A stretch of 18,425 nucleotides of DNA, taken from UHGV virus genome UHGV-2152132; one strand, written 5' to 3'. Positions 1 through 17,361 of this stretch are shown one piece after another (position 1 is the stretch's first letter; each line of letters opens with the position of its first letter). The translations under genes were made by a program, and so were the position numbers. The DNA comes from a virus. A model generated the notes under the pieces. The model did no database searches. It was not told the DNA's origin and saw only the letters and a list, made by a program, of their open reading frames with translations.

Positions 1-897
1 CTATGACTTGCTGTTTTCAGTAAGAGTCTTATCATCCAAAGAATTTATTCTAGAAATTCTTTTTAACTCATTAAGATAATCAACCTCGTTTTCTAAGAAC
101 CAATGAAGAACTTTAGAATTGCCAAGTAATTTATTAATATATGACTGGATTATAACGAATTTCAACATATCTGAACCATACTCGGTTTGAAGCTTTTTCG
201 TTTCTTCCGAAGTTGTTGCCATTTCTTGTTCCAGACGAAGTATGGTTTTTTTTATGTCCTTTTTATAGGGAGTGTTTTTCCCTTTATTTACTATCATCGA
301 TGCCGGTGTTGCATCCAAGATGCTCATTGCAAATTTTTTACTATAATTATCAAAATTAATCATTGTACCGACTGCTTCAATTTGGCGAATTGGCTTCATT
401 TTCCTCAAAACGTCAAATGTAGCCTTAGGTATAGGTTTATCAGAAAGTTTCGCAATTACACTTGAATCTATGCCGTTCATCACATTCGCTTTATCTTTTA
501 TGGCATCAACAGATATGCCCAAAGCAGCACTAAGTTTTTCAATTGATACTTTTGCCAGAGACTTAATTATCATTCTATGTTCTTCAACTACATTTATATG
601 ATTCACTTGTTTGTTAGGAGTGAAAGCATCATCTATGCTCGAAAGTATACATGGAGCTTTTTCTATACCTAAGTCTTTTAAAGCCTCAACCCTTAAATGG
701 CCATCAAGTATCTTAGTGACATCTTTATCTTTGTCATAGAATACTATTATTGGTTCAATAATACCTAAGCTTTCGATAGAGGTAACTATTTGATGATATT
801 TATGGCTTCGCTTTACGTTTTCTAATAATTCCTTAGATGGAATTAACTTATTAGTTTCCAGGTAAATAAAATTATCGCCAAAACGTATCTGAATCAT
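1..897 (-). CDS. ParB/Srx-fold (ParB N-terminal domain-like) protein, distal gene of AT-rich three-gene operon
   Basis: 298-aa ORF complete in window (stop at 1-3). ParB-box-like segment SIESLGIIEPIIVFYDKDKDVTKILDGHLRVEALKDLGIE. Start ATG overlaps the upstream gene stop (ATGA, 894-897); AAGAGG RBS about 7 nt upstream. Very low GC versus flanks. Family assignment is by motif, not search. Confidence 0.55.
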   Translation of the reverse strand: MIQIRFGDNFIYLETNKLIPSKELLENVKRSHKYHQIVTSIESLGIIEPIIVFYDKDKDVTKILDGHLRVEALKDLGIEKAPCILSSIDDAFTPNKQVNHINVVEEHRMIIKSLAKVSIEKLSAALGISVDAIKDKANVMNGIDSSVIAKLSDKPIPKATFDVLRKMKPIRQIEAVGTMINFDNYSKKFAMSILDATPASMIVNKGKNTPYKKDIKKTILRLEQEMATTSEETKKLQTEYGSDMLKFVIIQSYINKLLGNSKVLHWFLENEVDYLNELKRISRINSLDDKTLTENSKS

Positions 898-1790
898 TTT
901 AATACCTCTTTGTTTACTGGGGTTAATATCTGAGATGGTAGTTCTGAAAGATTCTCTTGTTCAAGTATATGTTGAAAGCTTTTATTCATCATTATGATGT
1001 TAAAAATCTCATTTACTATTAGTAGGTTGGTTTTTATGAATTTTGAGTTGTTATAAACAGATTTATGTTCAGCGATACTATTTTCATAAAGCTCAATCAA
1101 CTCCTCTGCAGTCATCCTTTTTGATGGTTTGTGATAATAAAATCCGGCTGCTTTTGCACCTTTATTCCCAACTGTTCTTTGATTTAGAATGTGTTTTATC
1201 TTTATAATGTCCCGACTTTTTATTAATTTTTTATCATATGCTTCGGTAAGAATATCTTGTGCTTCCTCAGTTTCACATCTTGCAAATTGCACTGCGAGAT
1301 ACAGAGGCAAATTACCCCGTTCGACTGCTGAGAGAAGTTTATGCTCTCCCTTATCAAGTAGCATATTAATACTGCTCACCCAGTTCGATGAATATCCAGT
1401 AATCTCACTTATTTCGGAGTCTGAAAGTCCTCTGATTTTCATGTCTTTAATCACCTGTAATAACTCATTAGAACGTGGTCTTCTCCTTGCAATGTTTTCA
1501 ACTAAACTCATAACGTAAGCATCTTCTTCTGATACATCTCTTATAATTGCTGGAATAATAGTTTCACCTAATGCAACGAGAGCCTCTATTCTCCCTTGAC
1601 CACAAATTAAAGCATATTTGAAATCGCCTTCATCAATAGCTCTTACGCTTATAGGCTTGCTTAATCCTCTTTTTTTTATGCTTTCCTTTATTTCTTCATG
1701 CACTACCTTATTTCTTGTTCGTGGGTTAAGAAATTTTATTTTTGCAATCTCAATTTGAATTATTGGGAATTCATTTTTTTCAGGCAGCAT
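894..1790 (-). CDS. ParB-like nuclease/partition-family protein (ParB N-terminal domain plus HTH-like segment)
   Basis: 298-aa ORF. ParB box II-like motif KYALICGQGRIEALVALGETIIPAIIRDVSEEDAYVMSLVENIARR, followed by HTH-like GLSDSEISEITGYSSNWVSSINML. GAGGGA RBS 5-6 nt upstream. First 11 nt overlap the end of the upstream recombinase gene. Confidence 0.6.
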   Translation of the reverse strand: MLPEKNEFPIIQIEIAKIKFLNPRTRNKVVHEEIKESIKKRGLSKPISVRAIDEGDFKYALICGQGRIEALVALGETIIPAIIRDVSEEDAYVMSLVENIARRRPRSNELLQVIKDMKIRGLSDSEISEITGYSSNWVSSINMLLDKGEHKLLSAVERGNLPLYLAVQFARCETEEAQDILTEAYDKKLIKSRDIIKIKHILNQRTVGNKGAKAAGFYYHKPSKRMTAEELIELYENSIAEHKSVYNNSKFIKTNLLIVNEIFNIIMMNKSFQHILEQENLSELPSQILTPVNKEVLK

Positions 1791-3336
1791 ATAGTTCCCT
1801 CACTTTCATGCGAGTAATAATTTGTAGAAGTTTATCAAGATTATCAAATCTATAGAGATCTAATCGAATGTTGTTTGTTTCCGTCATGCACATTTTATTA
1901 TATTCGTTTTCAATCTTTGGTATGATATAAAAATCAAGAGGTGAAATATTTTGTGAATTCATTCGTATAACAATTGTTATGTCTGCTTTCTGTGAGTTAT
2001 CAAACCGGACTTTCCATCTAAGTTTACCTGATTTCATATGTATGCATTTAGTAACAAGGACGGAAATTAAAAACTCATCATTGATGTAAAGCATTGGGGC
2101 ATATTTATACTCGTCTATATGACAGTTGCTTTTTAAAATTTCACCCTTAAAATCCTCAATTATCTCTGAGTAAAATGATCTTAGTGCTTCATTTATTTTG
2201 AGATAGCTGTAATCATGTTCTGGCTTATAACCAATCAAAGTATATGCTCTTAAAAGACCACCAAATCGGGTTCTATAAACAGAAGATGAAGGGCCTGTAT
2301 CATCTTCATCAATGATAAAGCCTGATAGTTTTCCATTAGATTCTAATTTTTGTTTTAGTTTTTCTAATAGATCTTCATTAGTCAAATGAATGGATCGGAG
2401 CTGAATTATTTCTTGAGCTTTATTGTATTTTTTCTTTGAAATAATAGGTTTATATGCCTTGTCACATCTAACCCATTCATGTTTGGGGTTTTTTACAAGC
2501 CTACTTTTTAATTTAGATGAGGTTTTGTTATATATGTTGTTTCCAATATATTTTTCATTTGTCAAAATTTGATGTATTTTTGCACGAGTCCATAATGTAC
2601 CATTTTCTGCAGGTATGTTCTGTTCATTTAATCTCTCAGCAATAATGAATTCTGGGACGTTATTATCTATAAAGAGATCATATATTCTATTTACAATTTT
2701 TATTTCATTTTTTGGTCCCGGAATTAATATTACCCTATCTGTTTGAATACTCTTTCTTTTGCGGAAACTCAATATTTCTTTAGCTATGCCATTTTCGTCT
2801 ACTAAAAGACGTCTCAGCCCATAACCAGCCATACCGCCTTGATGATAACCAAGCTTTATTAAATTTACTTGCCCTATAAATACCTTTTCAGATAGATTCC
2901 TGCTGTGATATGCAGCACTAGATCTTTTTATATTCAGTATAACAGAGGACTCTAAAGGGAAATCTTTAGTGGGTATAGGTTCGGAACAATATATAAGATC
3001 TACACCATTTCTCTCAAATAGAAAGGAATAATATGCCGCTTCATCACTATTTTGAAAACGACCAAAACGGCTCACATCATAAAATAATACAGCCTGTATA
3101 TCTATTTTCTTTTGTTCTACATCGCTAAGTAACTGCTGCAAAGAATGCCTGCCTACGATACTGACTCCGCTCTTACCTGAATCATCGTAGGTATAAGCGA
3201 TTTCCATATTGTTCTTTTCAGCATAATCTTTGATATATTCGGACTGATTATGTAAAGAATATTGCTGATGGTCGGTAGACATCCTCAAGTACTGCGCGAC
3301 CCTAACTCTATGATTTTTGTCATTTTCGCTAGCCAT
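1780..3336 (-). CDS. Large serine recombinase family protein (resolvase-type catalytic domain plus recombinase domain, long C-terminal extension)
   Basis: 518-aa ORF. N-terminal catalytic signature RVAQYLRMSTDHQ (Ser nucleophile context) and DDSGKSG; recombinase-domain-like GQVNLIKLGYHQGGMAGYGLRR. First gene of the operon, GAGG RBS upstream. AT-rich codon usage. Confidence 0.75.
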   Translation of the reverse strand: MASENDKNHRVRVAQYLRMSTDHQQYSLHNQSEYIKDYAEKNNMEIAYTYDDSGKSGVSIVGRHSLQQLLSDVEQKKIDIQAVLFYDVSRFGRFQNSDEAAYYSFLFERNGVDLIYCSEPIPTKDFPLESSVILNIKRSSAAYHSRNLSEKVFIGQVNLIKLGYHQGGMAGYGLRRLLVDENGIAKEILSFRKRKSIQTDRVILIPGPKNEIKIVNRIYDLFIDNNVPEFIIAERLNEQNIPAENGTLWTRAKIHQILTNEKYIGNNIYNKTSSKLKSRLVKNPKHEWVRCDKAYKPIISKKKYNKAQEIIQLRSIHLTNEDLLEKLKQKLESNGKLSGFIIDEDDTGPSSSVYRTRFGGLLRAYTLIGYKPEHDYSYLKINEALRSFYSEIIEDFKGEILKSNCHIDEYKYAPMLYINDEFLISVLVTKCIHMKSGKLRWKVRFDNSQKADITIVIRMNSQNISPLDFYIIPKIENEYNKMCMTETNNIRLDLYRFDNLDKLLQIITRMKVRELYAA

Positions 3337-3618
3337 GCACGAAACCTCATGGATGATTCAATACAATGTAGTGGATAAAATTGATCAAATTTTAACCGAA
3401 TTCAACTGTTTTATCATTGATTAGAGCGAATTTGGTAGATCTTCGAGGTGTATGATAATCGAGAAGAGATGTGAATTATTTAGCTGATATGACCGACAGC
3501 TTTCGTTATGTGGACTCAATGTCCCCATTTGTAAATGGCTATGCTTAGTCCACATAGGTTAATGGTGTGATTATTAATTCTTTAACTAAATCAAGATAGT
3601 TAATCCATCATGGGAGAG
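3337..3618 (-). promoter_or_regulatory. AT-rich leader/promoter region of the recombinase-ParB-ParB operon, containing a nested palindrome
   Basis: 282-bp non-coding gap between the integrase stop and the recombinase start. Perfect 9-bp inverted repeat ATGTGGACT (3508-3516) / AGTCCACAT (3547-3555) enclosing CCATTT-GT-AAATGG (3524-3537). No promoter hexamers confidently assigned. Confidence 0.35.
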
Positions 3619-4848
3619 TTATGCGGCAATAACTTTGCATTTTTGAGACGAAACATAGTCACTCCACCATTGCATGAGAACCACCCGTTCAGTGAGATAC
3701 TCTGCACGATTGTAGGCTGCAATTATTTCATCTTTCTTCGAGTGGGCAAGGGCGGCTTCTAAGACATCAGTCCTAAACTTGCCAGACTCCTCAGCAGCCG
3801 TTCTAGCAATGGATCGCATACCGTGAGCTACAAGCTCACCTCCGAAACCCATACGGATTATGGCCGCATTAGCTGTTTGTTCATGCATGTGATTGAGTGG
3901 AGCTTTGATACTGGGGAACACCCACTCTCTATGCCCGCTGATGACTTTCATTAAATCCAAAACTCGCAAAGCTTCTTTGCTCAGTGGAACTTTGTGAGGC
4001 TTCTTCATTTTCATAAACTCCGCCGGGATGTTCCACATGCCAGTTTCAATATCAATATCTGACCATCTTGTGCGAACAGCTTCACCTGGGCGAACCCATG
4101 TGAGAAGTTGCCACTCAATCAGTAGCCTTGTTTCCAAACGGATAGAAGCATTGTTTAGAGCAACCAAGAAGCGAGGGAGTTCGGAAGGGGGTAATGCTGG
4201 CATATTCTGTTTTTTTGGCTTGCTGAACCGTTGCCCCAGGTTGTCTGCCGGGTTGAATTCTATGAGTTCTTCTGTTGCTGCATAGCGGAAAATTTCATTC
4301 AGGCGGGATATGATGCGGCGAAGTGTTTCAAGGACACCTCGTTTTTCTATGGGTTCTAAATGCTGTTTAAGCATTTTAGGGCGAATCTCCTTAATTGGGG
4401 TATCACCCAATGTGGAAAAGATATTTCTCTCTAGGCTTCGCCAGATGTCGTTAGCATGATCTTGGGAGATGCCTGACGTTTTGACTTTCTCATCAAGCCA
4501 CTTCTTGGCTACTGCTTGAAATGTATGTTCCGTGGCATCTTTCAGTGCATTGGCTTTTTGGTTGTTATGAACTTGGGGGTCTATACCATTTGTAAGCAAC
4601 GACAAGTATTCATCACGTAAAGCTCGTGCCTTCGCAAGTGTAAGGTGAGGATAGGTTCCTAAGCTCACCTTAGTTCGCTTTTTGGTCACAGGCACTGCAT
4701 ATCTGAAATACCAATTTTTCTTCCCTCCCTTCGCCAGGGGAGCGATTCGCAACAGCAAACCATCGCCGTCAAAAAGGTTAACCTCTTTTTCGGCAGGTTT
4801 GGTGCTTTTGATTTCAGTGTCAGTGAGCTTCTTAGCGATTTTGGCCAT
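3619..4848 (-). CDS. P4-type (IntA/SlpA-like) tyrosine integrase
   Basis: ORF track gives 3619..4929 (436 aa). The probable true start is the internal Met of MAKIAKKLTDTEIKSTKP (about 4848), the typical P4-family integrase N-terminus. C-terminal catalytic residues: AHGMRSIARTAAE (H-x-x-R) and IIAAYNRAEY (Tyr nucleophile). Lies next to the ssrA 3'-end repeat, same orientation as ssrA. Confidence 0.85.
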   Translation of the reverse strand: MAKIAKKLTDTEIKSTKPAEKEVNLFDGDGLLLRIAPLAKGGKKNWYFRYAVPVTKKRTKVSLGTYPHLTLAKARALRDEYLSLLTNGIDPQVHNNQKANALKDATEHTFQAVAKKWLDEKVKTSGISQDHANDIWRSLERNIFSTLGDTPIKEIRPKMLKQHLEPIEKRGVLETLRRIISRLNEIFRYAATEELIEFNPADNLGQRFSKPKKQNMPALPPSELPRFLVALNNASIRLETRLLIEWQLLTWVRPGEAVRTRWSDIDIETGMWNIPAEFMKMKKPHKVPLSKEALRVLDLMKVISGHREWVFPSIKAPLNHMHEQTANAAIIRMGFGGELVAHGMRSIARTAAEESGKFRTDVLEAALAHSKKDEIIAAYNRAEYLTERVVLMQWWSDYVSSQKCKVIAA

Positions 4849-4944
4849 GTTTGGGACCCTCGATTTTAGGACCCATCTTCGTGGGTCCCATTCAGGGTGC
4901 CATAACTCGTAGTTCTCAGCAATTCTCACTAGACTACAATAGAC

Positions 4945-4986
4945 GTAAAAAAGCCCGCAGAGCTTGTGCTGTGCGGGCTTAGTAGA
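4945..4986 (-). terminator. Rho-independent terminator (minus strand) just downstream of the partial ssrA 3' copy
   Basis: 9-bp stem AAGCCCGCA (4951-4959) / TGCGGGCTT (4972-4980), 12-nt loop. On the minus strand the hairpin is followed by a T-run (complement of AAAAAA at 4945-4950). Confidence 0.55.
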
Positions 4987-5010
4987 CTTTACTGAACTTC
5001 AGTACATCAA

Positions 5011-5059
5011 TATTTGGTGGAGCTGGCGGGAGTTGAACCCGCGTCCGAAATTCCTACAT
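5011..5059 (-). repeat. att core: 49-bp exact direct repeat of the ssrA 3' end (partial tmRNA copy)
   Basis: tatttggtggagctggcgggagttgaacccgcgtccgaaattcctacat is identical at 5011-5059 and 17362-17410. It contains the 3'-terminal 45 nt of tmRNA; flanking bases differ. Confidence 0.9.
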
Positions 5060-5144
5060 ACCATTTTTAGTATAGTAAAAATAGTAATTTATGTTTTAAA
5101 ACAAAGAATTAGTTTTTTGTTGTGTTTGCCCGTTTTATACATTT

Positions 5145-6404
5145 TTAACTCTCCGCCGCCAAATTGCCGCCATCAGGTAGATGCTCATGCTTCATCATTT
5201 GGTGGATAAGAACTTCTACTTTTCTGAAGGTCGTATTGTCATAGTACTCAACAAGTGATTCATCGAAATCCTCTATCCAACCTTTTGCTGGGCCATTTGT
5301 TTGATATCTGACGGCAGTTGGTGAGTGGAAGTTGGGAGTAGCCTTTAAAGTGCTAAACACAGCCCATGATACTGGGTTAGTCACTTTAAATATTCTCTTC
5401 AATTCAGGGCAGTACAACGTGTTTGGTACAGTTATTCGTTCCATTTTAGGGGGTAAGATTACATTAATACCGATGTCACTATCTTTTTGATTAAGTATTT
5501 TTGTCGAACGATACGATATTCCAGAAATATCCTTGTTGCTATCACTGCTAATCCATTGCATTAATAGGTTTGGAATAATGTATTCTTTGTGAAAATTTGC
5601 ATGTTCATGATCTTTTGTATAGTTACAGGCCAATACTAAAGGCCATGCGATTAGTTTTGAAACCTTATCATTAATCGGGTCTGAGAAATCACTATAATTT
5701 TCATTGTTGTATTCATCTATGCGTTCAGGCTCAAATGAAAATGAATGCTCACTTGGAGTGGAACGTAGTGCTGACGTTAGGTTGTATCCGAGGTCTAGTA
5801 TTCTAATTTGTGATGATTCGTCTTCAGTAATAAATGATGATATATACAGCTTATCGAAATCTGGTTTTCCCATCTCTTGCCAGCAAACAAATATTGATGT
5901 CCCAAGATATAGACATGGTAAACCTGAAACTGAGAAGCGTTGTGCGCTTACCAAATGTCTTTGACTAAAAGGAATGTGGAATAATTCTTCTCTATTTTTT
6001 AGTATGTTTTCACTTTTCCTAACCCGAAATAACGGAGTTCGTCTATTACAAAGTTTTGTTAACGGAACCGTCATTTGATAAATGTGGTTCTTCATTGCTG
6101 GTGAACCTATTATAGCTTGGTTGAAAGTATTATAGGCTTCTTTAATATTACCGTTAAGATAATGGGTTAACGTTTCAGATATTTTATTGGAGAATGTTGT
6201 GATTGAAATCGATCTTTTTTTTACCTCTTTTATTGTTTCGTTGTCTGGATAGTCCTTTCTTATTTTATCAATAGCTTCAAGATAACAATCAATCCTGTTT
6301 TTAAAGTTGGATACAATGTCGCCATTGGCCTTGAATGGGGGTTGAAGTAGTTCATATTGTAATAATGAATCTGATATTTCTTTCAGTTCTGAATATTTGC
6401 GCAT
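5145..6404 (-). CDS. RES-domain-like protein (putative NAD+-targeting toxin/abortive-infection-type effector); prophage cargo between att and int
   Basis: 419-aa ORF, AT-rich relative to neighbouring phage genes. Central segment LFRVRKSENILKNREELFHIPFSQRHLVSAQRFSVSGLPCLYLGTSIFVCWQEMGKP resembles the RES-domain core (R ... G.P.LY..S....E). Starts 10 nt after the integrase stop, weak RBS, so probably co-transcribed with int. Domain call by pattern only. Confidence 0.45.
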   Translation of the reverse strand: MRKYSELKEISDSLLQYELLQPPFKANGDIVSNFKNRIDCYLEAIDKIRKDYPDNETIKEVKKRSISITTFSNKISETLTHYLNGNIKEAYNTFNQAIIGSPAMKNHIYQMTVPLTKLCNRRTPLFRVRKSENILKNREELFHIPFSQRHLVSAQRFSVSGLPCLYLGTSIFVCWQEMGKPDFDKLYISSFITEDESSQIRILDLGYNLTSALRSTPSEHSFSFEPERIDEYNNENYSDFSDPINDKVSKLIAWPLVLACNYTKDHEHANFHKEYIIPNLLMQWISSDSNKDISGISYRSTKILNQKDSDIGINVILPPKMERITVPNTLYCPELKRIFKVTNPVSWAVFSTLKATPNFHSPTAVRYQTNGPAKGWIEDFDESLVEYYDNTTFRKVEVLIHQMMKHEHLPDGGNLAAES

Positions 6405-6414
6405 GAGAATTATT

Positions 6415-7431
6415 TCAATTAAGGTTGATTAATGGATTCTTAGTCACAGCATCTTCGAGATGTTCTGGAGAAAAATGTGCATATATCATTGTCATTTTAA
6501 TATCAGTGTGACCCAAGATTTCTTTAAGTACCAGTATGTTTCCGCCGTTCATCATAAAGTGACTGGCGAATGTATGACGCAGAACGTGGGTACATTGACC
6601 TTCCGGCAGCTCAATACCGGCCCTCTTTACTGCTCGTTCAAAAGCTTTTCTGCATGGAGTGAATAATTTTCCTCTCTTTTTGGGGAGTTCGTCATACAGA
6701 TCCTGTGATATTGGCACTGTTCTGTTTTTCTTGCCCTTAGTCTTGGTGTAAGTGATGCGGTATTTTGACAACTGGTGTCCCTGTAGGTTTTCGGCTTCAC
6801 TCCATCGCGCGCCGGTGGCCAGGCAGATTTTTGTAATCAAAAGCAGGCTGGGGCTTTGAGAATCAGCGCAGGCATCCAGCAGACGTTTAATTTCTTCCGG
6901 GGTCAGGAACGCCAGTTCACCCTCAGCAATTTTAAATGTTGGCAGCCCGGCAAGTGGGTTGGGGGCTGACCAATGGCCCAGCTTTTTCAGTGTACCAAAT
7001 ACCGATGATAGGTTACGCTGTTCAAGGTTTACCGTGCGGGGCTTAACGGGCGACATAAGCGTGCCATCTTCATTTCGCACTTCACCTTTTAGCCGTGCTT
7101 CGCGGTATTTCGTAAAGTCACCGGCTGTCAGTTCTGAGGCGATGGGATCGCCTAGACCATTACAGATAATTTTAAGTTTCGCCATGAGGCGCTTGGGGTC
7201 TGCGAGTGTCTGACCGTACAGGGAATACCAAAGCTCAATTAATTCTGATAGGCGTCGCCGATCATCCTTTTCTCCTAACCACGGTTTTTTGTTCACTTCT
7301 TCCATTGTGAAGCTTTCAAACGCAATAGCTTCGCCTTTGGTAGCAAATTGCTTACGCACGCGCTTGCCATTGCGTCCATTGGGATAGCACTCACACAACC
7401 ATTTTCCGTTCGGCTGTTTTCTGATGGTCAT
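6415..7431 (-). CDS. int: P2/186-family tyrosine integrase
   Basis: 338-aa ORF with catalytic motifs ATGARWSEA (Arg), HVLRHTFASH (His-x-x-Arg) and MIYAHF (Tyr). Position next to the CI-type repressor is typical of P2-like phages. Confidence 0.88.
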   Translation of the reverse strand: MTIRKQPNGKWLCECYPNGRNGKRVRKQFATKGEAIAFESFTMEEVNKKPWLGEKDDRRRLSELIELWYSLYGQTLADPKRLMAKLKIICNGLGDPIASELTAGDFTKYREARLKGEVRNEDGTLMSPVKPRTVNLEQRNLSSVFGTLKKLGHWSAPNPLAGLPTFKIAEGELAFLTPEEIKRLLDACADSQSPSLLLITKICLATGARWSEAENLQGHQLSKYRITYTKTKGKKNRTVPISQDLYDELPKKRGKLFTPCRKAFERAVKRAGIELPEGQCTHVLRHTFASHFMMNGGNILVLKEILGHTDIKMTMIYAHFSPEHLEDAVTKNPLINLN

Positions 7432-7432
7432 T

Positions 7433-8065
7433 TCAAAGGCTCTTAATGATTTTCAGTGCGCGGCCTACTACCTCAATGTCATCCAGGCCGCACTCAAACG
7501 ATGAATCATCCTGATGCACTACTAATTTGTTTCCCGGGAGTCGAGTCAATTTAACGATGCTTTTTATCCCGTCGATATCGACTAACCACATACCATTTAC
7601 TGGTGGTGTTTGGTTGCGATCTATTAAATAAGAATCACCAGAAGTAGTCACCAGCAGTAGGTTGCTTGAGTCTGAGGGGAGTATGCTGCTATCAATGATT
7701 GCTTTTCCAGCATCGACCAATAAACCACCGTTGAGAGTCGCCTTGTCAATTTCAGGAGATACTAGTTCAGAAAGAGGTACAACCTTGCTGGAGTTCACGG
7801 AATTGATATTTTTTTTAGGTTCAATGTTTGGACCTGGCTCCCCCTGTCCGGTGGTTAGCCACAGTAAAGAAACTCCTGTTTCCAAGGCGCACTGAATCAC
7901 CCACTCTGCAGGAAAACTATCTCTTAAGTATCTGTTTGCCATGGTGCTTTTTGATGCGCCTAAGTGATCGCAAAGTTGCTGTCTGGACTTGAAATCATAG
8001 GCTGCCATTAGTCTATGGATAGCCTCTCTTCCCCCTGTATTCTCTCCAACCTTTACCTGTATCAT
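7433..8065 (-). CDS. 186-type CI immunity repressor
   Basis: 210-aa ORF. N-terminal HTH region SRQQLCDHLGASKSTMANRYLRD and the segment QCALETGVSLLWLTTGQGEP, characteristic of phage 186/PSP3/Fels-2 CI. Divergent from the apl/cII-like genes across an operator-bearing gap. Confidence 0.75.
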   Translation of the reverse strand: MIQVKVGENTGGREAIHRLMAAYDFKSRQQLCDHLGASKSTMANRYLRDSFPAEWVIQCALETGVSLLWLTTGQGEPGPNIEPKKNINSVNSSKVVPLSELVSPEIDKATLNGGLLVDAGKAIIDSSILPSDSSNLLLVTTSGDSYLIDRNQTPPVNGMWLVDIDGIKSIVKLTRLPGNKLVVHQDDSSFECGLDDIEVVGRALKIIKSL

Positions 8066-8184
8066 TTTTTAATCCTGTTGACGTATCAAATATTGGATCG
8101 TAGTATCTCGATGTATCAAATATTGAATCAAGTAAAACGAGATAAAACGACGTAAACCAAACCTTAATCGGGAGATACTGCACT
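8066..8184. promoter_or_regulatory. Divergent switch region (pR/pL-like) with direct-repeat operator candidates
   Basis: 17-bp direct repeat GTATCAAATATTG(G/A)ATC at 8083-8099 and 8113-8129, 30 bp centre to centre. Rightward sigma70-like promoter TTGACG (8077-8082), 18-bp spacer, TAGTAT (8101-8106); the first repeat overlaps its spacer. Confidence 0.5.
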
Positions 8185-8427
8185 ATGAGCACTGATATTT
8201 CAATTCGTGTACCAAAAGAGATGGCTACGCCTGCAGAGTTCGCGGAATGGGAAGGTATCTCCCGCGGCTCCGTGTATCAAAAAATTCACCATGGTCAGCT
8301 TGCTAAATACATGGTCAAGAAAGAAAAAAACAAAGGCCGCGTAAGCCTGCGTTATTTAATGTACAAAACCGATCAGGTCCGTGAATCCCTCGGTCATTCC
8401 AACTTCCGCGTCATTGTTGGTAAGTAA
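8185..8427 (+). CDS. Apl/Cox-like small HTH protein (excisionase/transcriptional regulator)
   Basis: 80-aa ORF, first gene rightward from the switch region. HTH-like ATPAEFAEWEGISRGSVYQKIHHGQL. GGAG RBS about 10 nt upstream. Confidence 0.5.
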   Translation: MSTDISIRVPKEMATPAEFAEWEGISRGSVYQKIHHGQLAKYMVKKEKNKGRVSLRYLMYKTDQVRESLGHSNFRVIVGK

Positions 8428-8459
8428 GTTCAATTATGAGAACTTTCTAAGGGGGTAGC

Positions 8460-8855
8460 ATGTTTGATTATAAGATTTCCAAACACCCGCATTTTGATGA
8501 AGCCTGTAGAGCTTTTGCACTTCGTCACAATATGGCGAAGCTGGCAGAACGTGCAGGAATGAATGTCCAGACTCTGCGAAACAAACTCAACCCAGATCAA
8601 CCGCATCAGCTCAATGCGCCAGATATCTGGCTACTTACCGATCTGACGGAAGATTCAACGCTGGTAGACGGTTTTCTGGCACAGATTCACTGCCTGCCAT
8701 GTGTACCGATTAATGAGGTGGCAAAAGAGAAACTGCCACATTACGTCATGAGTGCAACCGCAGAGATCGGGCGTGTTGCTGCAGGTGCGGTATCCGTTCC
8801 GACGTTCCTCGTTGCCGCTTCTCCCAAACCAACGTTTAAGAAAATGCAGAGGTAA
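8460..8855 (+). CDS. CII-like phage regulatory protein (186 CII family), possibly C-terminally altered
   Basis: 131-aa ORF. N-terminal MFDYKISKHPHFDEACRAFALRHNMAKLAERAGMNVQTLRNKLNPDQ resembles 186-type CII. AAGGGGG RBS. Gene ends 38 bp before the invertase, where the normal early-region genes are missing. Confidence 0.55.
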   Translation: MFDYKISKHPHFDEACRAFALRHNMAKLAERAGMNVQTLRNKLNPDQPHQLNAPDIWLLTDLTEDSTLVDGFLAQIHCLPCVPINEVAKEKLPHYVMSATAEIGRVAAGAVSVPTFLVAASPKPTFKKMQR

Positions 8856-8899
8856 CAGCTAACTGGCATCATCTCCGGTTTTTATTCAGGGGGATGATC

Positions 8900-9466
8900 A
8901 TGCTTATTGGCTATGTACGCGTGTCAACAAATGACCAGAACACCGATTTGCAACGTAATGCACTGAACTGCGCGGGATGTGAGCAGATTTTTGAGGACAA
9001 AATCAGTGGCACTAAGTCCGACAGACCGGGGCTGAAAAAACTACTCAGGACACTATCGGCAGGAGACACGCTGGTTGTCTGGAAGCTGGACAGGTTGGGG
9101 CGCAGTATGCGGCATCTTGTTACGCTGATAGAAGAGTTGCGCCAGCGTGGTGTGAATTTCAGAAGCCTGACTGACAGTATTGATACCAGTACCCCAATGG
9201 GCCGTTTCTTTTTTCATGTCATGGGTGCCCTGGCTGAAATGGAACGCGAACTGATAGTTGAACGTACCAGGGCAGGGCTGGCTGCAGCTCGTGCCAAAGG
9301 CAGAGTAGGTGGACGCCGTCCTAAGTTGACCACCGAACAGTGGGCACAGATTGGGCGTTTACTCGAGGCCGGAGAATCAAGACAGCGTATTGCACTGATT
9401 TTTGATGTAGGCGTTTCTACCATTTATAGAAAATTTCCGGCAAATAAGATCAATGAATCCCCCTGA
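8900..9466 (+). CDS. Site-specific DNA invertase, Gin/Pin/Cin/Hin family (small serine recombinase)
   Basis: Starts MLIGYVRVSTNDQNTDLQRNAL...GDTLVVWKLDRLGRSM...SPMGRFFFHVMGALAEMERELI, the canonical invertase sequence, with C-terminal HTH. ORF track starts at 8894 (MIM...); ATG 8900 has better spacing from AGGGGG (8888-8893). Confidence 0.92.
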   Translation: MLIGYVRVSTNDQNTDLQRNALNCAGCEQIFEDKISGTKSDRPGLKKLLRTLSAGDTLVVWKLDRLGRSMRHLVTLIEELRQRGVNFRSLTDSIDTSTPMGRFFFHVMGALAEMERELIVERTRAGLAAARAKGRVGGRRPKLTTEQWAQIGRLLEAGESRQRIALIFDVGVSTIYRKFPANKINESP

Positions 9467-9514
9467 ATCAGCATTATGTTGATTATCCCTGCAAGCAGAC
9501 AAATACCGTTATTT

Positions 9515-9532
9515 TGTGTGAATAACGACACA
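9515..9532 (+). promoter_or_regulatory. P2-type late promoter activator site (TGT-N12-ACA dyad) upstream of FI
   Basis: TGT (9515-9517), 12 nt, ACA (9530-9532), inside a near-perfect dyad TTGTGTG...GACACAA, about 85 bp upstream of the FI start. P2-family late promoters carry this Ogr-dependent element near -55. Confidence 0.5.
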
Positions 9533-9608
9533 ACTGCGCTTAGCTGTTTGTCAGGCACAATCACTTCAACATAGGGCGAAGCCTAATCCAATCAGGAGGT
9601 TCGCCACT

Positions 9609-10781
9609 ATGGCTCAGGATTACCACCACGGGGTGCGCGTTGTTGAAGTCAACGAAGGCACCCGATCTATTACCACGGTGAGCACCGCCATCGTGGGTAT
9701 GGTCTGCACGGGCGATGATGCCGATGCAAAAATGTTTCCTCTTAATAAACCCGTGCTGATCACTGATGTGCTGACTGCCAGCGGTAAAGCGGGTGAGTCA
9801 GGTACTCTGGCCCGTTCGCTGGATGCCATCGCTGACCAGGCAAAACCCGTGACCATTGTTGTGCGTGTGCCGCAGGGTGAAACGGAAGACGAAACCACGA
9901 CCAATATCATCGGCGCAGTGACTGCTGAAGGTAAAAAAACAGGTATGAAAGCCCTGTTATCTGCCCAGTCACAGCTCGGCGTTAAACCGCGCATTCTCGG
10001 CGTGCCAGGCCACGACACCAAGGCGGTAGCTACTGAGTTGCTGAGCGTGGCGCAAAGCCTGCGTGGATTTGCTTACCTGTCAGCGTATGGCTGCAAGACA
10101 GTGCAGGAGGCGATCACTTACCGCGAAAACTTCAGCCAGCGCGAAGGGATGCTGATCTGGCCTGACTTTACTGGCTGGGACACGGTGCTGAATGCCGAAG
10201 CAACGGCATATGCCACCGCCCGTGCGCTTGGTCTGCGCGCCAAAATTGACGAGCAGACCGGATGGCACAAAAGCCTGTCCAACGTGGGCGTGAACGGTGT
10301 CACCGGAATTTCTGCAGATGTGTTCTGGGATCTGCAGGACCCGGCAACCGATGCAGGTCTGCTGAACCAGAACGACGTCACCACGCTTGTGCGTAAAGAC
10401 GGTTTCCGCTTCTGGGGTTCCCGCTGCCTGAGTGATGACCCGCTCTTTGCCTTCGAAAACTACACCCGCACGGCGCAGGTGCTGATGGACACGATGGCAG
10501 AAGCACACATGTGGGCGGTGGATAAACCGCTTAACCCGTCGCTGGCCCGCGACATTATCGAAGGTATCCGCGCCAAAATGCGCAGCCTGGTCAGTCAGGG
10601 CTATCTCATTGGTGGTGATTGCTGGCTGGATGAGTCGGTGAACGACAAAGACACGCTGAAAGCCGGAAAACTCACCATCGACTACGACTACACGCCAGTG
10701 CCGCCACTTGAAAACCTGATGCTGCGTCAGCGCATCACCGATCAGTACCTGGTGAATTTCGCCAGCCAGGTCAGCGCGTAA
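9609..10781 (+). CDS. FI: Contractile tail sheath protein (P2 gpFI homolog)
   Basis: 390-aa ORF starting [40 protein letters not shown], typical gpFI N-terminus. CAGGAGG RBS. Followed by FII-E-T-U-D in P2 order. Confidence 0.9.
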
Positions 10782-10790
10782 GGGGACAAC

Positions 10791-11306
10791 ATGGCTTTAC
10801 CACGCAAATTAAAACACCTGAACCTGTTTAACGACGGGAACAACTGGCAGGGGATCGTTGAATCGCTGACGCTGCCGAAATTTACCCGCAAATATGAGAA
10901 GTATCGCGGCGGCGGAATGCCGGGTGCGGTGGATGTGGATCTGGGGCTTGATGACAGTGCGCTGGACACAGAATTTTCCATTGGTGGTACTGAATTGCTG
11001 CTGTTTAAACAGATGGGTAAAGCCACGGTGGATGGCATCCAGCTGCGCTTTACCGGCTCTATTCAGCGTGACGATACCGGGGAAGTGCAGGCCGTGGAGC
11101 TTGTCGTGCGTGGACGTCACAAAGAAGTGGATTCCGGCGAGTGGAAGACGGGCGAAAGCAACACCACCAAAGTGACCAGTACCAACAGCTACGCGAAGCT
11201 GACCATCAATGGTGAGGTGCTCTATGAAGTGGACCTTATCAACATGGTGGAAATTGTGGACGGTGTGGACCTGATGGAAGCGCACCGCAACGCCCTCGGC
11301 CTCTGA
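10791..11306 (+). CDS. FII: Tail tube protein (P2 gpFII homolog)
   Basis: 171-aa ORF, MALPRKLKHLNLFNDGNNWQG...RFTGSIQRDDTGE, immediately after FI. Confidence 0.9.
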   Translation: MALPRKLKHLNLFNDGNNWQGIVESLTLPKFTRKYEKYRGGGMPGAVDVDLGLDDSALDTEFSIGGTELLLFKQMGKATVDGIQLRFTGSIQRDDTGEVQAVELVVRGRHKEVDSGEWKTGESNTTKVTSTNSYAKLTINGEVLYEVDLINMVEIVDGVDLMEAHRNALGL

Positions 11307-11360
11307 TATATCTGAACGGCGCGGGATACCGCGCCAGAACCCAATTGACAGGACAGCAAA

Positions 11361-11663
11361 ATGAGCGATAAGCAGACTGAAAAGACCATTCAACTGGATA
11401 CCCCCATCAAGCGCGGTAAAACAGAAATCACCGAAATTGTGCTGCGTAAACCGCAGTCCGGTGCGCTGCGCGGTACACGCCTGCAGGCCATTATGGATAT
11501 GGATGTAAACGCGATGATGACCGTGATCCCCCGCATCTCCAGTCCGGCACTGACTGCACAGGAAATTGCAGAGATGGACCCGGCAGATCTCACTGCCATG
11601 TCGGTTGAGGTTGTCACTTTTTTGTTGAAGAAGTCGGTGCTTGCCGGTTTACCGACAGCCTGA
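11361..11663 (+). CDS. E: Tail assembly chaperone gpE (unshifted product)
   Basis: 100-aa ORF between FII and T. Contains the slippery heptamer T TTT TTG near its 3' end. Confidence 0.8.
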   Translation: MSDKQTEKTIQLDTPIKRGKTEITEIVLRKPQSGALRGTRLQAIMDMDVNAMMTVIPRISSPALTAQEIAEMDPADLTAMSVEVVTFLLKKSVLAGLPTA

Positions 11664-11797
11664 CGGTTGACGATCTGGTGGCAGATATCGCCACCATTTT
11701 TCACTGGCCGCCATCCGTTACTGACGTTATGCCGCTGACCGAAGTGCTGGAATGGCGGTATAAAGCGATTCAGAGAAGCGGGGCCAACGATGAGTGA
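11361..11797 (+). CDS. Tail assembly chaperone E+E' (predicted -1 programmed frameshift product)
   Basis: Slippery site TTTTTTG at about 11618-11624. The -1 frame is open from there to TGA at 11795-11797, giving an extension ...DDLVADIATIFHWPPSVTDVMPLTEVLEWRYKAIQRSGANDE that overlaps the T start by 8 nt. Confidence 0.6.
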
Positions 11798-14700
11798 TAA
11801 CAACCTGCGTCTGCAGGTCATTCTTAATGCGGTTGACAAGCTCACCCGCCCATTTCGATCTGCGCAGGCCAGTTCAAGAGAACTGGCTGCTGCTGTCAAA
11901 AAATCCCGCGATGCAATAAAGCAGCTTGATCAGGCCGGGAGCAGTCTGGACAGCTTCCGAAAGCTGCAGGCAGAAAATCAGAAATTAGGCGACAGGCTGA
12001 ACTATGCCCGCCAGCGTGCAAATTTGCTCAGTCAGGAACTGGGAGCGATGGGGCCGCCTTCGCAACGTCAGGTTGTTGCTCTGGGCCGTCAACGGCTGGC
12101 TGTTCAGCGCCTGGAAGAACGCCAGAAAAAGCTGCAGCAGCAGACGGCGCTTGTGCGTGCTGAACTGTACCGGGCGGGAATTTCTGCGAAAGACGATGCG
12201 GGAGCAACTGCCCGTTTAGCCCGTGAAACATCACGTTATAACCAGGAACTTTCGAAACAGGAGGCGCGGCTGAAGCGACTGGGGGAAGCTCAGCGCAGGA
12301 TGAATGCAGCGCGTGCCAGTTATGCCCGTTCGCTGGAGGTGCGTGATCGTATTGCAGGTGCCGGAGCCACCACCACGGCTGCAGGGCTGGCAATGGGTGC
12401 GCCAGTGATGGCGGCAGTAAAAAGCTATACCAGCATGGAAGATGCCATGAAAGGTGTGGCAAAGCAGGTCAATGGTCTGCGTGACGATAATGGCAACCGC
12501 ACTGCACGTTTTTATGAAATGCAGGATGCCATCAAGGCTGCCAGCGAACAGTTGCCGATGGAAAACGGTGCGGTGGACTTCGCTGCACTGGTTGAAGGTG
12601 GTGCGCGCATGAACGTCGCAAACCCTGACGACAGCTGGGAAGATCAGAAACGTGACCTGCTGGCCTTCGCCAGTACGGCAGCAAAGGCGGCAACAGCCTT
12701 TGAGCTGCCAGCGGATGAACTGTCAGAAAGTCTGGGGAAAATCGCCCAGCTCTACAAAATCCCCACCCGCAATATTGAACAGCTCGGTGATGCGCTGAAC
12801 TATCTGGATGATAACGCCATGTCGAAAGGGGCAGACATCATTGATGTGATGCAACGTCTGGGCGGTGTGGCTGACCGTCTGGATTATCGTAAAGCGGCGG
12901 CGCTGGGTTCCACCTTCCTGACACTGGGCGCTGCGCCAGAGGTTGCAGCCAGTGCAGCAAACGCGATGGTGCGTGAATTGTCCATTGCCACCATGCAAAG
13001 CAAGAGTTTCTTTGAAGGGATGAATCTGCTGAAACTCAATCCTGAAGTGATTGAAAAGCAGATGACGAAGGATGCGATGGGAACCATCCAGCGCGTGCTG
13101 GAGAAGGTAAACGCGCTGCCGCAGGACAAGCGCCTGTCTGCCATGACTATGTTGTTTGGTAAAGAGTTTGGCGATGACGCGGCGAAACTGGCAAACAACC
13201 TGCCGGAACTGCAGCGTCAGTTAAAACTGACAGCGGGCAATGATGCGCTTGGCTCCATGCAAAAAGAATCCGACATTAACAAGGATTCACTTTCTGCGCA
13301 GTGGTTGCTGGTCAAAACCGGAGCGCAGAACACCTTCAGCAGCCTGGGCGAAACGCTGCGCCAGCCGCTGATGGATATTCTGTACACGGTGAAAAGCGTC
13401 ACGGGGGCGTTGCGTCGCTGGGTGGAAGCTAACCCGGAACTGACAGGCACACTGATGAAAGCATCGGCTGTTGTGGCTGCGGTTACCGTCGGCCTCGGCA
13501 CCTTAGCGGTGGCGCTGGCTGCAGTGCTGGGGCCGCTGGCAGTGATCCGTCTGGGATTCTCTGTGTTGGGTATCAAAACGTTATCTTCCGTTACGGCAGC
13601 AGTAACTCGAACCAGCAGCGCGTTGTCCTGGCTGGCTGGCGCACCACTGGCACTGCTGCGACGCGGGCTTGCTTCATCGGGCAACGCCGCAGGTTTACTT
13701 ACTGCGCCGTTGTCGTCTTTGCGCCGCACGGCATCACTGACGGGAAATGTCCTGAAAACTGTAGCAGGTGCGCCGGTTGCACTTTTGCGGTCTGGATTAT
13801 CCGGTTTACGTGCTGTTGCTGTGATGTTTATGAATCCTCTGGCGGTACTGCGCGGTGGACTGGCCGCCGCAGGCACGGTGCTGCGAGTACTGGCATCTGG
13901 TCCACTGGCGATGCTGCGCGTTGCCCTGTATGCCATATCTGGTCTGTTAGGTGCTCTGCTCAGTCCGATAGGTCTTGTGGTTACTGCACTGGCGGGCGTG
14001 GCGCTGGTTGTCTGGAAATACTGGCAACCCATCACCGCATTTCTCGGTGGCGTGGTGGAAGGATTCAAAGCGGCGGCAGGTCCCATCAGTGCAGCGTTCG
14101 AACCGCTTAAGCCCGTGTTCCAGTGGATTGGCGACAAAGTGCAGGCGCTGTGGGGCTGGTTTACTGATCTGCTGACGCCCGTTAAGTCGACCTCTGCCGA
14201 ACTGCAGAGCGCAGCGGCAATGGGGCGGCGATTCGGGGAGGCACTGGCGGAAGGGCTGAATATGGTCATGCATCCGCTGGACTCCCTGAAATCCGGCGTT
14301 TCCTGGTTGCTGGAGAAGCTCGGCATTGTCAGTAAAGAGGCCGCAAAGGCAAAACTGCCGGAAAGCGTGACGCGTCAGCAACCTGCGACGGTGAATGCAG
14401 ACGGTAAAGTGATGATGCCATCGGGTGGTTTTCCATCATGGGGATATGGCTTTGCGGGGATGTATGACAGCGGCGGGTATATCCCGCGCGGGCAGTTTGG
14501 CATCGTCGGTGAAAACGGGCCGGAAATTGTTAACGGCCCGGCAAATGTGACCAGCCGGAGAAATACAGCTGCACTGGCTGCCGTTGTTGCCGGAATGATG
14601 GGCGTTGCTGCCGCGCCAGCAGAGCTTCCACCGTTGCACCCCTTGGCACTTCCCGCGAAAGGTGGAGAAGCAATTGTGAGTCGCGCAGCCACTGTGCCAC

Positions 14701-14867
14701 TCGTTCAACGGATTGAGGCACCGACGCAGATCATCATTCAGACGCAGCCAGGACAAAGTGCGCAGGATATTGCGCGGGAGGTGGCACGCCAGCTTGATGA
14801 ACGTGAACGCAGGCTGAAGGCAAAAGCCAGGAGTAACTACAGCGATCAGGGGGGATACGACGCATGA
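11790..14867 (+). CDS. T: Tail tape measure protein (P2 gpT homolog)
   Basis: 1025-aa ORF in the expected position. N-terminal coiled-coil-like region, central Ala/Gly/Leu-rich hydrophobic region with tandem PLAxLRxGL-type repeats, C-terminal Gly-rich region. Confidence 0.9.
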   Translation: MSDNNLRLQVILNAVDKLTRPFRSAQASSRELAAAVKKSRDAIKQLDQAGSSLDSFRKLQAENQKLGDRLNYARQRANLLSQELGAMGPPSQRQVVALGRQRLAVQRLEERQKKLQQQTALVRAELYRAGISAKDDAGATARLARETSRYNQELSKQEARLKRLGEAQRRMNAARASYARSLEVRDRIAGAGATTTAAGLAMGAPVMAAVKSYTSMEDAMKGVAKQVNGLRDDNGNRTARFYEMQDAIKAASEQLPMENGAVDFAALVEGGARMNVANPDDSWEDQKRDLLAFASTAAKAATAFELPADELSESLGKIAQLYKIPTRNIEQLGDALNYLDDNAMSKGADIIDVMQRLGGVADRLDYRKAAALGSTFLTLGAAPEVAASAANAMVRELSIATMQSKSFFEGMNLLKLNPEVIEKQMTKDAMGTIQRVLEKVNALPQDKRLSAMTMLFGKEFGDDAAKLANNLPELQRQLKLTAGNDALGSMQKESDINKDSLSAQWLLVKTGAQNTFSSLGETLRQPLMDILYTVKSVTGALRRWVEANPELTGTLMKASAVVAAVTVGLGTLAVALAAVLGPLAVIRLGFSVLGIKTLSSVTAAVTRTSSALSWLAGAPLALLRRGLASSGNAAGLLTAPLSSLRRTASLTGNVLKTVAGAPVALLRSGLSGLRAVAVMFMNPLAVLRGGLAAAGTVLRVLASGPLAMLRVALYAISGLLGALLSPIGLVVTALAGVALVVWKYWQPITAFLGGVVEGFKAAAGPISAAFEPLKPVFQWIGDKVQALWGWFTDLLTPVKSTSAELQSAAAMGRRFGEALAEGLNMVMHPLDSLKSGVSWLLEKLGIVSKEAAKAKLPESVTRQQPATVNADGKVMMPSGGFPSWGYGFAGMYDSGGYIPRGQFGIVGENGPEIVNGPANVTSRRNTAALAAVVAGMMGVAAAPAELPPLHPLALPAKGGEAIVSRAATVPLVQRIEAPTQIIIQTQPGQSAQDIAREVARQLDERERRLKAKARSNYSDQGGYDA

Positions 14868-15349
14868 TGATGGTGCTGGGATTGTACGTGTTTATGCTGC
14901 GCACCGTTCCGTATCAGGAACTGCAGTATCAACGCAGCTGGCGACATGCGGCAAACAGTCGGGTAAACCGACGTCCGTCCACGCAGTTTCTGGGACCGGA
15001 AAACGACATGCTGACGCTTTCCGGTGTTCTTATGCCGGAAATAACAGGCGGCAGGCTGTCGTTGCTGGCACTGGAGCAGATGGCAGAACAGGGGAAAGCA
15101 TGGCCCCTGATTGAAGGCAGCGGCACGATTTACGGCATGTATGTGATTGAGGGACTGAATCAGACTAAAACGGAGTTTTTCCGCGACGGTATGCCGCGCC
15201 GGATTGAGTTCACCCTGTCGCTCAAACGAGTGGATGAATCCCTGTCCGATATGTTCGGTGATCTCAGTGCGCAACTGAATAATCTGCAGGACACGGCAAC
15301 GTCTGCCTTAAGCGATATCAGTAAAACGGTGGGAGGGCTGCTGTCGTGA
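14864..15349 (+). CDS. U: Tail protein gpU homolog
   Basis: 161-aa ORF, MMMVLGLYVFMLRTVPYQELQYQRSWRH..., ATGA-type overlap with the T stop. Confidence 0.88.
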   Translation: MMMVLGLYVFMLRTVPYQELQYQRSWRHAANSRVNRRPSTQFLGPENDMLTLSGVLMPEITGGRLSLLALEQMAEQGKAWPLIEGSGTIYGMYVIEGLNQTKTEFFRDGMPRRIEFTLSLKRVDESLSDMFGDLSAQLNNLQDTATSALSDISKTVGGLLS

Positions 15350-16446
15350 ATTTCAGCTCTGAACTGCTTAACAAAGGCAACAAAACTCCCGCATTCAGCA
15401 TCAGTATTGAGGGCAGGGATATCACCACTGTGCTGGATAACCGCCTGATGAGTTTGACGCTGACGGATAACCGGGGCTTTGAAGCGGACCAGCTTGATCT
15501 GGAGCTGGATGACGCTGACGGAAAAATCGTGCTGCCGCGCCGTGGTGCGGTTATTACGCTGGCGCTGGGCTGGAAGGGGCAGCCGCTTTTCCCGAAAGGG
15601 GCATTCACAGTGGACGAGATTGAACACACTGGCGCACCGGACCGCCTGACTATCCGGGCGCGAAGTGCTGATTTTCGGGAAACGCTGAATACCCGCCGTG
15701 AAAAATCGTGGCATAAGACCACCGTCGGGGAAGTGGTGAAGGAAATAGCCGCGCGGCACAAGCTGAAGATGGCCCTGGGTAAAGACCTGTCGGATAAGCC
15801 CGTGGAGCATATAGACCAGACTAATGAGAGTGACGGCAGTTTTCTGATGCGGCTGGCGCGACAGTACGGTGCCATCGCGTCGGTGAAAAATGGCAATCTG
15901 TTATTCATCCGGCAGGGGCAGGGCAAAAGCGCCACTGGTAAACCTCTGCCAGTGATCACTATCACACGCAAGGACGGCGACAGTCACCGATTTACCCTGG
16001 CAGATCGCGGAGCCTACACGGGCGTAATTGCCAGCTGGTTGCATACCCGCGAACCTGCGAAGAAAGAAAGCACCACGGTGAAGCGTAAGCGCAGAACTAA
16101 GAAGCAGAAGAAAGAGCCGGAAGCGAAGCAGGGCGATTACCTGGTGGGTACGGATGAAAACGTGCTGGTACTTAATCGCACTTATGCCAACCGGAGCAAC
16201 GCTGAACGGGCAGCGAAAATGCAGTGGGAACGCCTGCAACGCGGCGTTGCGTCATTCTCGCTACAACTGGCGGAAGGGCGGGCAGATCTTTACACGGAAA
16301 TGCCAGTGAAAGTTAGTGGCTTTAAACAACCGATAGATGATGCGGAATGGACCATTACGACTCTGACTCATACCGTCAGCCCGGATAATGGTTTTACGAC
16401 CAGTATTGAACTCGAAGTGAAGATTGATGATCTTGAAATGGAATAA
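15346..16446 (+). CDS. D: Tail protein gpD homolog (late gene D)
   Basis: 366-aa ORF following U with a 4-nt overlap, matching P2 gene order. Confidence 0.88.
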   Translation: MNFSSELLNKGNKTPAFSISIEGRDITTVLDNRLMSLTLTDNRGFEADQLDLELDDADGKIVLPRRGAVITLALGWKGQPLFPKGAFTVDEIEHTGAPDRLTIRARSADFRETLNTRREKSWHKTTVGEVVKEIAARHKLKMALGKDLSDKPVEHIDQTNESDGSFLMRLARQYGAIASVKNGNLLFIRQGQGKSATGKPLPVITITRKDGDSHRFTLADRGAYTGVIASWLHTREPAKKESTTVKRKRRTKKQKKEPEAKQGDYLVGTDENVLVLNRTYANRSNAERAAKMQWERLQRGVASFSLQLAEGRADLYTEMPVKVSGFKQPIDDAEWTITTLTHTVSPDNGFTTSIELEVKIDDLEME

Positions 16447-16514
16447 AGTGTTCTCAATATTGATATTTTGTGTATCATTACAATGATTCTGATAGCAAAG
16501 GTAGGGATCTGGAT

Positions 16515-16733
16515 ATGATGAATTGTCCAAAGTGTGGTCATGCGGCACACACAAGGAGCAGTTTTCAAGTAACTGAAAGCACCAAAGAGCGTTACTGCCA
16601 GTGCCAAAATATTAACTGCGGGAGCACTTTTGTTACCCATGAAACAGTGGTCCGGTTTATTGTGACACCCGCACTGATTGCTACTGCTCCTCCACATCCA
16701 TTGCCAGGTGGTCAGGGGCATATGAATTTTTGA
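16515..16733 (+). CDS. ogr: Ogr/Delta-family zinc-finger late transcription activator
   Basis: MNCPKCGHAAHTRSSFQVTESTKERYCQCQNINCGSTFVTHETVVRFIVTP, with the four-Cys C-x2-C ... C-x4-C arrangement of P2 Ogr. ORF track starts at 16470; the ATG at 16515 (MMNCPKC) fits Ogr length. Confidence 0.85.
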   Translation: MMNCPKCGHAAHTRSSFQVTESTKERYCQCQNINCGSTFVTHETVVRFIVTPALIATAPPHPLPGGQGHMNF

Positions 16734-16741
16734 GAAAGAGA

Positions 16742-16763
16742 ACCTGCTACGGCAGGTTTTTAT
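16742..16763 (+). terminator. Rho-independent terminator after ogr
   Basis: Stem ACCTGC (16742-16747) / GCAGGT (16752-16757), 4-nt loop, followed by TTTTTAT on the plus strand. Confidence 0.6.
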
Positions 16764-17360: not shown

Positions 17361-17361
17361 T

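Follow-up and report, generated by a model that had tools for sequence, protein, structure and literature searches.

The window, i.e., the whole stretch of 18,425 nt analysed here, is very probably part of an Escherichia coli C-type chromosome in which two decayed integrative elements, the older one an island, are arranged in tandem at the tmRNA gene ssrA. In the proposed course of events, the older element, an island with a P4-type integrase, would have contributed from its own DNA a terminator and the final few nucleotides of ssrA, followed by its integrase gene, and IS1 would later have removed the far end of the island in the lineage of the window. A Fels-2-type temperate phage (186-like, P2 family) would then have recombined its attP, about 230 bp made up of a core of 45-47 nt between a P′ arm and a P arm that contains a terminator hairpin, with the regenerated ssrA. 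Because the core of attP is identical to the 3′ end of ssrA, the tmRNA sequence would have been left unchanged by this integration, which would have put the phage terminator 9 nt past the CCA end and shifted the former ssrA 3′ end, together with the island terminator, 12.3 kb away. A deletion of about 20 kb, beginning inside cII and ending shortly before the invertase gene, would next have turned the prophage into a non-viable remnant. Descriptions of tandem arrays at ssrA date back to 2003, and an arrangement of this kind with element-supplied terminators is already known, ordinary and well documented.

The bacterial genes and the two att copies are located in the window as follows.

17943-18425, minus strand: smpB, the chromosomal gene upstream of ssrA (Pfam SmpB, E 1.5e-57; 100% identical to E. 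coli C)
17366-17728, minus strand: intact ssrA, encoding tmRNA (ARAGORN, tag ANDENYALAA; Rfam RF00023)
17362-17410: ssrA-proximal att copy, a 49-nt core with the bacterial side at its 5′ and the phage side at its 3′ end (same core in attP of the phages Cartapus, SEN8 and MLG42)
5011-5059: distal att copy, the displaced, intact 45-nt 3′ end of ssrA plus 4 nt (exact repeat)

The match of ssrA to RF00023 scored 296.6 bits (gathering score 47) and covered the full model (1-374). The segments 5011-5059 and 17362-17410 form a direct repeat with identity at 49 of 49 nt, which breaks off abruptly at either end. This is the sole long repeat of the window, and chance occurrence of its 23-mers is not expected according to shuffled sequences. 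A preliminary description of the window, made from the sequence alone, had reported exact 49-bp repeats composed of the last 45 nt of ssrA and 4 further nucleotides; the identity and the tmRNA boundaries given by ARAGORN and Rfam bear this out, the additional 4 nt being AATA (ssrA strand) past the CCA end. The final 45 nt of the present gene (17410-17366) are now phage-derived or shared core. The repeat pair encloses 12.3 kb of P2-like DNA (5060-17361). As the distal copy retains CGCCAGCTCCACCA, excision would give back the wild-type ssrA found in E. coli C.

Regarding the native attB, as seen at the unoccupied ssrA of 2524 genomes, CCA is followed by ATCA and not by AATA, so that a lysogen at an empty site would show a repeat of 46 nt. 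At the equivalent junction of strain PEC1011, the island flank reads AAAAG where the window has ATATT, which indicates that the 4 nt past CCA are incidental. Judging by these flanks, the length of 49 nt is due to 4 nt that the neighbouring island shares by chance; they do not belong to native attB.

The empty site was observed in E. coli strain C. Window positions 4700-5059 joined to 17411-17800 are identical to strain C at 750 of 750 nt. Over the entire flanks, strain C matches window positions 1-5059 at 5059/5059 nt and 17362-18425 at 1064/1064 nt; both matches are adjacent in its genome and overlap by exactly the 49-nt core. The order in strain C is ssrA, island terminator, P4-type integrase, serine recombinase, two ParB-like genes, IS1 and glaH. 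The independently assembled gut-metagenome contig k127_96695 (ENA ERZ918205), retrieved through the exact protein sequence of the truncated CII, shows 100% identity to window positions 1-14062 and continues to the left for another 468 nt, reaching the IS1 junction also present in E. coli C. Of the complete E. coli assemblies, none covers more than 81% of the window. In a set of 5426 complete genomes of E. coli, ssrA is unoccupied in 2524 (47%), and the island family of the window abuts ssrA in 965 (18%). The ogr-ssrA junction of a Fels-2-type lysogen was found in 165 (3%), and the hybrid junction of the tandem form (island terminator, core and P′ arm) in 82 (1.5%).

The arms of the phage attachment site and the integrase of the phage are listed below.

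5060-5173: P′ arm of attP with two GCCGCCA repeats (5155-5161 and 5166-5172), colinear with attP of Cartapus, SEN8, MLG42 and Fels-2
17300-17318: two GCCGCCA-like repeats of the P arm with 11-nt spacing, conserved in every attP site aligned
6415-7431, minus strand: full-length tyrosine integrase of the P2 family, 338 aa (Pfam Int_N and Phage_integrase)

A predicted attP was built by joining window positions 16760-17410 to 5060-5700. Its first 765 nt are present as one block, at 94.9% identity, in the genome of Escherichia phage Cartapus (33.4 kb), between the ogr-side genes and the integrase. In a three-way alignment, the left arm of Cartapus corresponds to the ssrA-side flank with its hairpin, the 49-nt core is identical, and the right arm corresponds to the sequence flanking the distal copy. 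The attP layout of Cartapus recurs in Salmonella phage SEN8 and Yersinia phage MLG42, and in the Fels-2 record attP is annotated at the identical boundary, between …CCTACAT and ACCATTTTTAGTATAG. Homology between the phages extends over the core, with about 64 nt of P arm on one side and 114 nt of P′ arm on the other, and ends at 5173. Since attP is contiguous in phage genomes, the phage brings with it the 45-nt ssrA 3′ end and a terminator, and, judged from these alignments, the insert is the product of attP × attB recombination. The earlier claim of two elements in tandem, with the P2-like one adjoining the intact ssrA, is upheld by this contiguous attP together with the empty site of E. coli C.

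Pairs of GCCGCCA motifs with 11-nt spacing lie in both att arms (17300-17318 and 5155-5172), the second pair marking the end of the inter-phage homology; these pairs are candidate arm-type Int sites. The integrase of the window is 92% identical to that of Fels-2 and 93% identical to that of Cartapus. Both Fels-2 and SopEPhi are published ssrA integrators with an intact displaced fragment (PMC3448106; PMC10107115, Table 1).

A predicted terminator follows each att copy.

17323-17357, minus strand: phage-supplied predicted intrinsic terminator of ssrA (12-bp stem 17357-17330, GAAA loop, UUUUUCUUU tract)
4945-4981, minus strand: island-supplied predicted intrinsic terminator (GC-rich hairpin, stem about 4981-4951, then UUUUUU)

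Folding agreed with the initial observation that a different minus-strand hairpin with a T-tract follows each copy: the two hairpins differ from each other, and each is GC-rich with a U-tract, on the minus strand after its own att copy. The ssrA-proximal hairpin (-19.8 kcal/mol, z -2.8) sits in the conserved P arm of the contiguous attP in Cartapus, SEN8 and MLG42. One position of its stem is U·G or U-A in the ssrA-sense RNA of the aligned attP sites and a C·A mismatch on the opposite strand; pairing in the ssrA sense only fits a function in the direction of ssrA. The island hairpin (-27 kcal/mol for an 81-nt stretch, z -4.1) is homologous to the hairpin that follows ssrA in CP4-57 of strain K-12, and shows a compensatory change in strain RIVM_C039629 (GCCCGCA/TGCGGGC vs GGCCGCA/TGCGGCC). 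Both hairpins are predicted to act as Rho-independent terminators. The native ssrA flank, ATCATGATTGG..., is unlike the island sequence; the native downstream sequence, CCACCA followed by ATCATGATTGGACGG, is seen at the far ends of CP4-57 and of the RIVM_C039629 island and in the 2524 genomes with unoccupied ssrA, and another hairpin lies about 150 nt further on in the native flank, beside ypjA. The proposal that each element donates a replacement 3′ end and a terminator holds in both parts for the phage, with the 45 nt and the hairpin in attP, and for the island as regards the hairpin, with its homologue in CP4-57. As read from these junctions, neither element alters the tmRNA sequence.

To the left of the distal att copy lies the island, whose features in the window are the following.

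3619-4848, minus strand: P4-type (IntA-like) tyrosine integrase, 409 aa (Pfam Arm-DNA-bind_3, Phage_int_M and Phage_integrase)
1-3336, minus strand: island cargo, 32% GC, with a large serine recombinase (1780-3336) and ParB/RepB-like ORFs (894-1790 and 1-897)

A P4-type integrase right after the distal copy had been recognized from the outset; the ORF starts at 4848, 163 nt beyond that copy and on the same strand as ssrA, and the assignment is confirmed by its three Pfam domains and by NCBIfam PRK09692 (444.6 bits, cut-off 434). The protein is 48% identical to IntA of K-12. A reading of the island as a P4 satellite was rejected, int being its sole P4 gene. That the island is an integrated element is suggested by analogy, from its homology to CP4-57-type islands and from relatives with an attR. 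The serine recombinase has 518 aa and the two ParB/RepB-like paralogues 298 aa each; the trio is conserved in GPEC1054 as well as in E. coli C and may constitute a mobile or defence module nested within the island.

Regarding the far ends of related islands, CP4-57 (integrase 48% identical) ends in ACTCCGCCAGC-CCACCA and the island of RIVM_C039629 (integrase 85% identical) in CGCCAGC-CCACCA, both adjoining the native flank. The displaced ssrA fragment of the P4-type family is therefore 13-19 nt long and imperfect, vs a core of 45-47 nt in the Fels-2 type. By comparison of these fragments, different integrases use different, nested cores in ssrA. Nested cores in one gene reportedly agree with the sublocation picture of Williams. 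Strain GPEC1054 carries another prophage at ssrA (389-aa integrase, DarT/NADAR cargo) in a 99%-identical island background; its identity block comprises only 34 nt (19011-19044 of the GPEC1054 locus), which points to a third att sublocation within ssrA.

The preliminary description had anticipated a third att copy to the left of the island. The region from the island up to glaH was scanned with a 19-nt probe, allowing up to 3 edits (Sellers edit distance), and no third ssrA fragment was found in E. coli C, GPEC1054, PEC1011 or strain 571; such a copy is probably absent. In all four genomes the island is cut by IS elements. The missing third fragment is attributed to decay of the island and is no argument against tandem integration. 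In the lineage of the window, the far end of the island appears to have been lost to IS1, as suggested by the gut contig identical over 14,062 nt.

The DNA between the att copies contains the following features of a phage.

5060-17361: Fels-2/186-type (Peduoviridae) prophage remnant, 12.3 kb (gene content; missing in the otherwise 100% identical E. coli C)
5145-6404, minus strand: cargo ORF, 419 aa, in a variable slot between att and int (phrog_7835, function unknown, sole match)
7433-8065, minus strand: 186-type CI repressor (Pfam Phage_CI_repr and Phage_CI_C)
8185-8427, plus strand: Apl/Cox-like excisionase and repressor (phrog_6912; phrog_575, excisionase)
8460-8855, plus strand: truncated cII, 131 aa vs 169 aa when intact (Pfam CP76, positions 1-111 of 146)
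8894-9466, plus strand: Hin/Pin-type DNA invertase (Pfam Resolvase and HTH_7)
9609-16446, plus strand: tail module FI, FII, E(+E′), T, U and D (Pfam; all ORFs intact, with lengths as in relatives)
16470-16733, plus strand: ogr, late activator (Pfam Ogr_Delta), the final phage gene before att
16760-17242, minus strand: BRCT/ligase-like cargo ORF, 160 aa, between ogr and att (phrog_2561, E 2e-77)

The 186-type lysis-lysogeny switch was found in the form of CI (Pfam), CII (CP76, truncated) and Apl/Cox (PHROG). A full-length relative in PEC1011 has the same left end and continues via fil, a replication gene, portal, terminase, capsid and lysis genes. Compared with this relative, portal, terminase, capsid, lysis, baseplate, fibre and replication genes are missing from the prophage of the window. 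The missing replication, head, lysis, baseplate and fibre genes, together with the truncated cII, indicate a deletion remnant rather than a complete phage. The designation 'P2-like phage' in the preliminary description is thus appropriate as to the P2-like genes between the repeats, but what they represent is only a 12.3-kb deletion remnant.

According to alignments to the cII gene of PEC1011 and to DNA from upstream of the invertase gene, the deletion junction lies just after 8794, and it is identical in the gut-metagenome contig. The crossover site of the invertase (TTCTCCCAAACCAACGTTTAAGAAAA) is present in one copy in the window (8819-8844) and in two inverted copies in an intact relative, strain 503440. 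An internal deletion made by the invertase at this site was considered and found unsupported, the junction being located about 25 nt left of the site and off the crossover dinucleotide.

The 419-aa ORF has a GC content of 32-35% and yielded no match in Pfam, NCBIfam, PADLOC or PDB sequence searches. Elsewhere, the slot between att and int is occupied by a RES-domain protein (Cartapus) or by a DarT/NADAR pair (GPEC1054); with such differing genes it resembles a hotspot of variable cargo or defence genes. The 160-aa ORF, whose counterparts in relatives carry a BRCT domain annotation, gave a weak match to PADLOC PDC-S48; it is kept in Cartapus and many lysogens and is located directly behind the phage-supplied predicted terminator of ssrA.

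As regards the order of insertion, an arrival in reverse, i.e., of the Fels-2-type phage in an empty ssrA and only later of the P4-type island in the displaced distal core copy, is improbable, although it would yield the same final structure. The distal copy has an intact CGCCAGCTCCACCA, including the last approximately 14 nt used by the P4-type integrase, and the att overlap of the P4 type is short; with this short core present in both copies, the arrival order is not fixed by the structure itself. The island-first order is favoured because the island with the same IS1 truncation occurs, 100% identical, in E. coli C, which lacks the phage, and because the island family is found directly at ssrA in 965 genomes vs 82 with the tandem form. 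Furthermore, once the island had entered, the full 45-nt core of the Fels-2 type would have been present only in the proximal copy, so that the observed arrangement would be predicted uniquely by this order. It is also conceivable that E. coli C has been cured of the phage and does not represent the ancestral state.

The preliminary description had assigned the same att specificity to both elements, which would share one 49-bp site with a third 49-bp copy at the far end of the island. Both elements do target the 3′ end of ssrA, and AATA beyond CCA is common to both flanks; the integrases, however, belong to unrelated subfamilies, and islands with an 85% or 48% identical integrase end in the short imperfect fragment next to the native flank, vs the 45-47-nt core of the phage. 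Against the same reading stand the lack of any fragment of at least 19 nt (at most 3 edits) up to glaH in the four related genomes, the native ATCA in place of AATA, and the AAAAG in place of ATATT at the PEC1011 junction. The reading of a shared 49-bp att is thereby largely refuted and must be rated as very improbable. Hardly any credence attaches to a single composite element, a duplication or an assembly artefact: such an origin is suggested by the adjacency of two integrase genes and by nothing more, whereas the parts occur apart, with attP in virion genomes and the island by itself in E. coli C and the 965 genomes, and the same structure was assembled independently from a gut metagenome.

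Among known systems, Fels-2 and SopEPhi of Salmonella (Felsduovirus, P2/186-like) share with the prophage of the window the attP boundary, the 45-47-nt core and the intact displaced fragment, as well as the orientation, with the ogr end at ssrA and int at the far end, and the 186-type CI/Apl/CII switch. The element of the window differs from them in its occurrence in E. coli, in being a 12.3-kb deletion remnant and in the cargo beside att. Cartapus (Peduoviridae, Elveevirus, NC_070909) has the same terminator, 49-nt core and P′ arm as the window, with about 96% DNA identity in the tail, ogr and BRCT-like genes; in contrast to the remnant it is a complete phage of 33.4 kb, and a RES-domain gene takes the place of the 419-aa ORF. 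The island resembles CP4-57 of K-12 (P4-type IntA at ssrA) in having int directly after ssrA and on its strand, in supplying a homologous GC-rich terminator and in the integrase family (PRK09692, 48% identity). Unlike CP4-57, it carries a serine recombinase and two ParB-like genes as cargo, with no alpA in the window; CP4-57 retains a short mutated attR (psaA), whereas in the lineage of the window that end has apparently been deleted by IS1.

Tandem arrays at tDNAs are a standard category of Islander, with the tmRNA gene as the most enriched target (PMC4383910). In these arrays, integrase-bearing elements are stacked, each regenerating the gene and displacing a fragment, and the window is the same in principle, each of its elements having its own integrase gene (6415-7431 and 3619-4848). 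It differs in that both members are decayed and only the phage remnant keeps its own tDNA fragment (5011-5059); that of the island has probably been deleted.

With intact int, apl and cI and two perfect att sites, precise excision of the remnant is predicted and should remain possible. The displaced ssrA fragment being intact, loss of the remnant should not inactivate tmRNA, in contrast to the excision of CP4-57 in K-12, which does so (PMC10107115). There is a slight chance that the remnant is a maintained, excision-competent element and not inert debris, a reading based on the intact int, apl and cI, the two perfect att sites, the unbroken tail module, the two cargo genes, the toxin or defence genes found in relatives in the slot that holds the 419-aa ORF, and the unchanged persistence of the remnant in gut strains resembling E. 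coli C. If maintained, it might serve as an island for defence or cargo, or provide incoming P2-like phages with tail genes, and its excision or re-entry would alter the 3′ trailer and the terminator of tmRNA.

The results matter mainly for annotation, as the prophage remnant and the island remnant at ssrA can now be correctly delimited. They also provide a worked example of attP × attB giving attL and attR in which attP, the empty site and the occupied site are all natural sequences, and the E. coli frequencies may help as background for island-mapping tools.

Two Fels-2-type prophages stand in tandem at ssrA in E. coli 503440 (…D, ogr, att, cargo, int…); a '12-kb element' considered in this strain is in fact the junction of these two full-length prophages. 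This double lysogen indicates that polylysogeny via one core occurs naturally.
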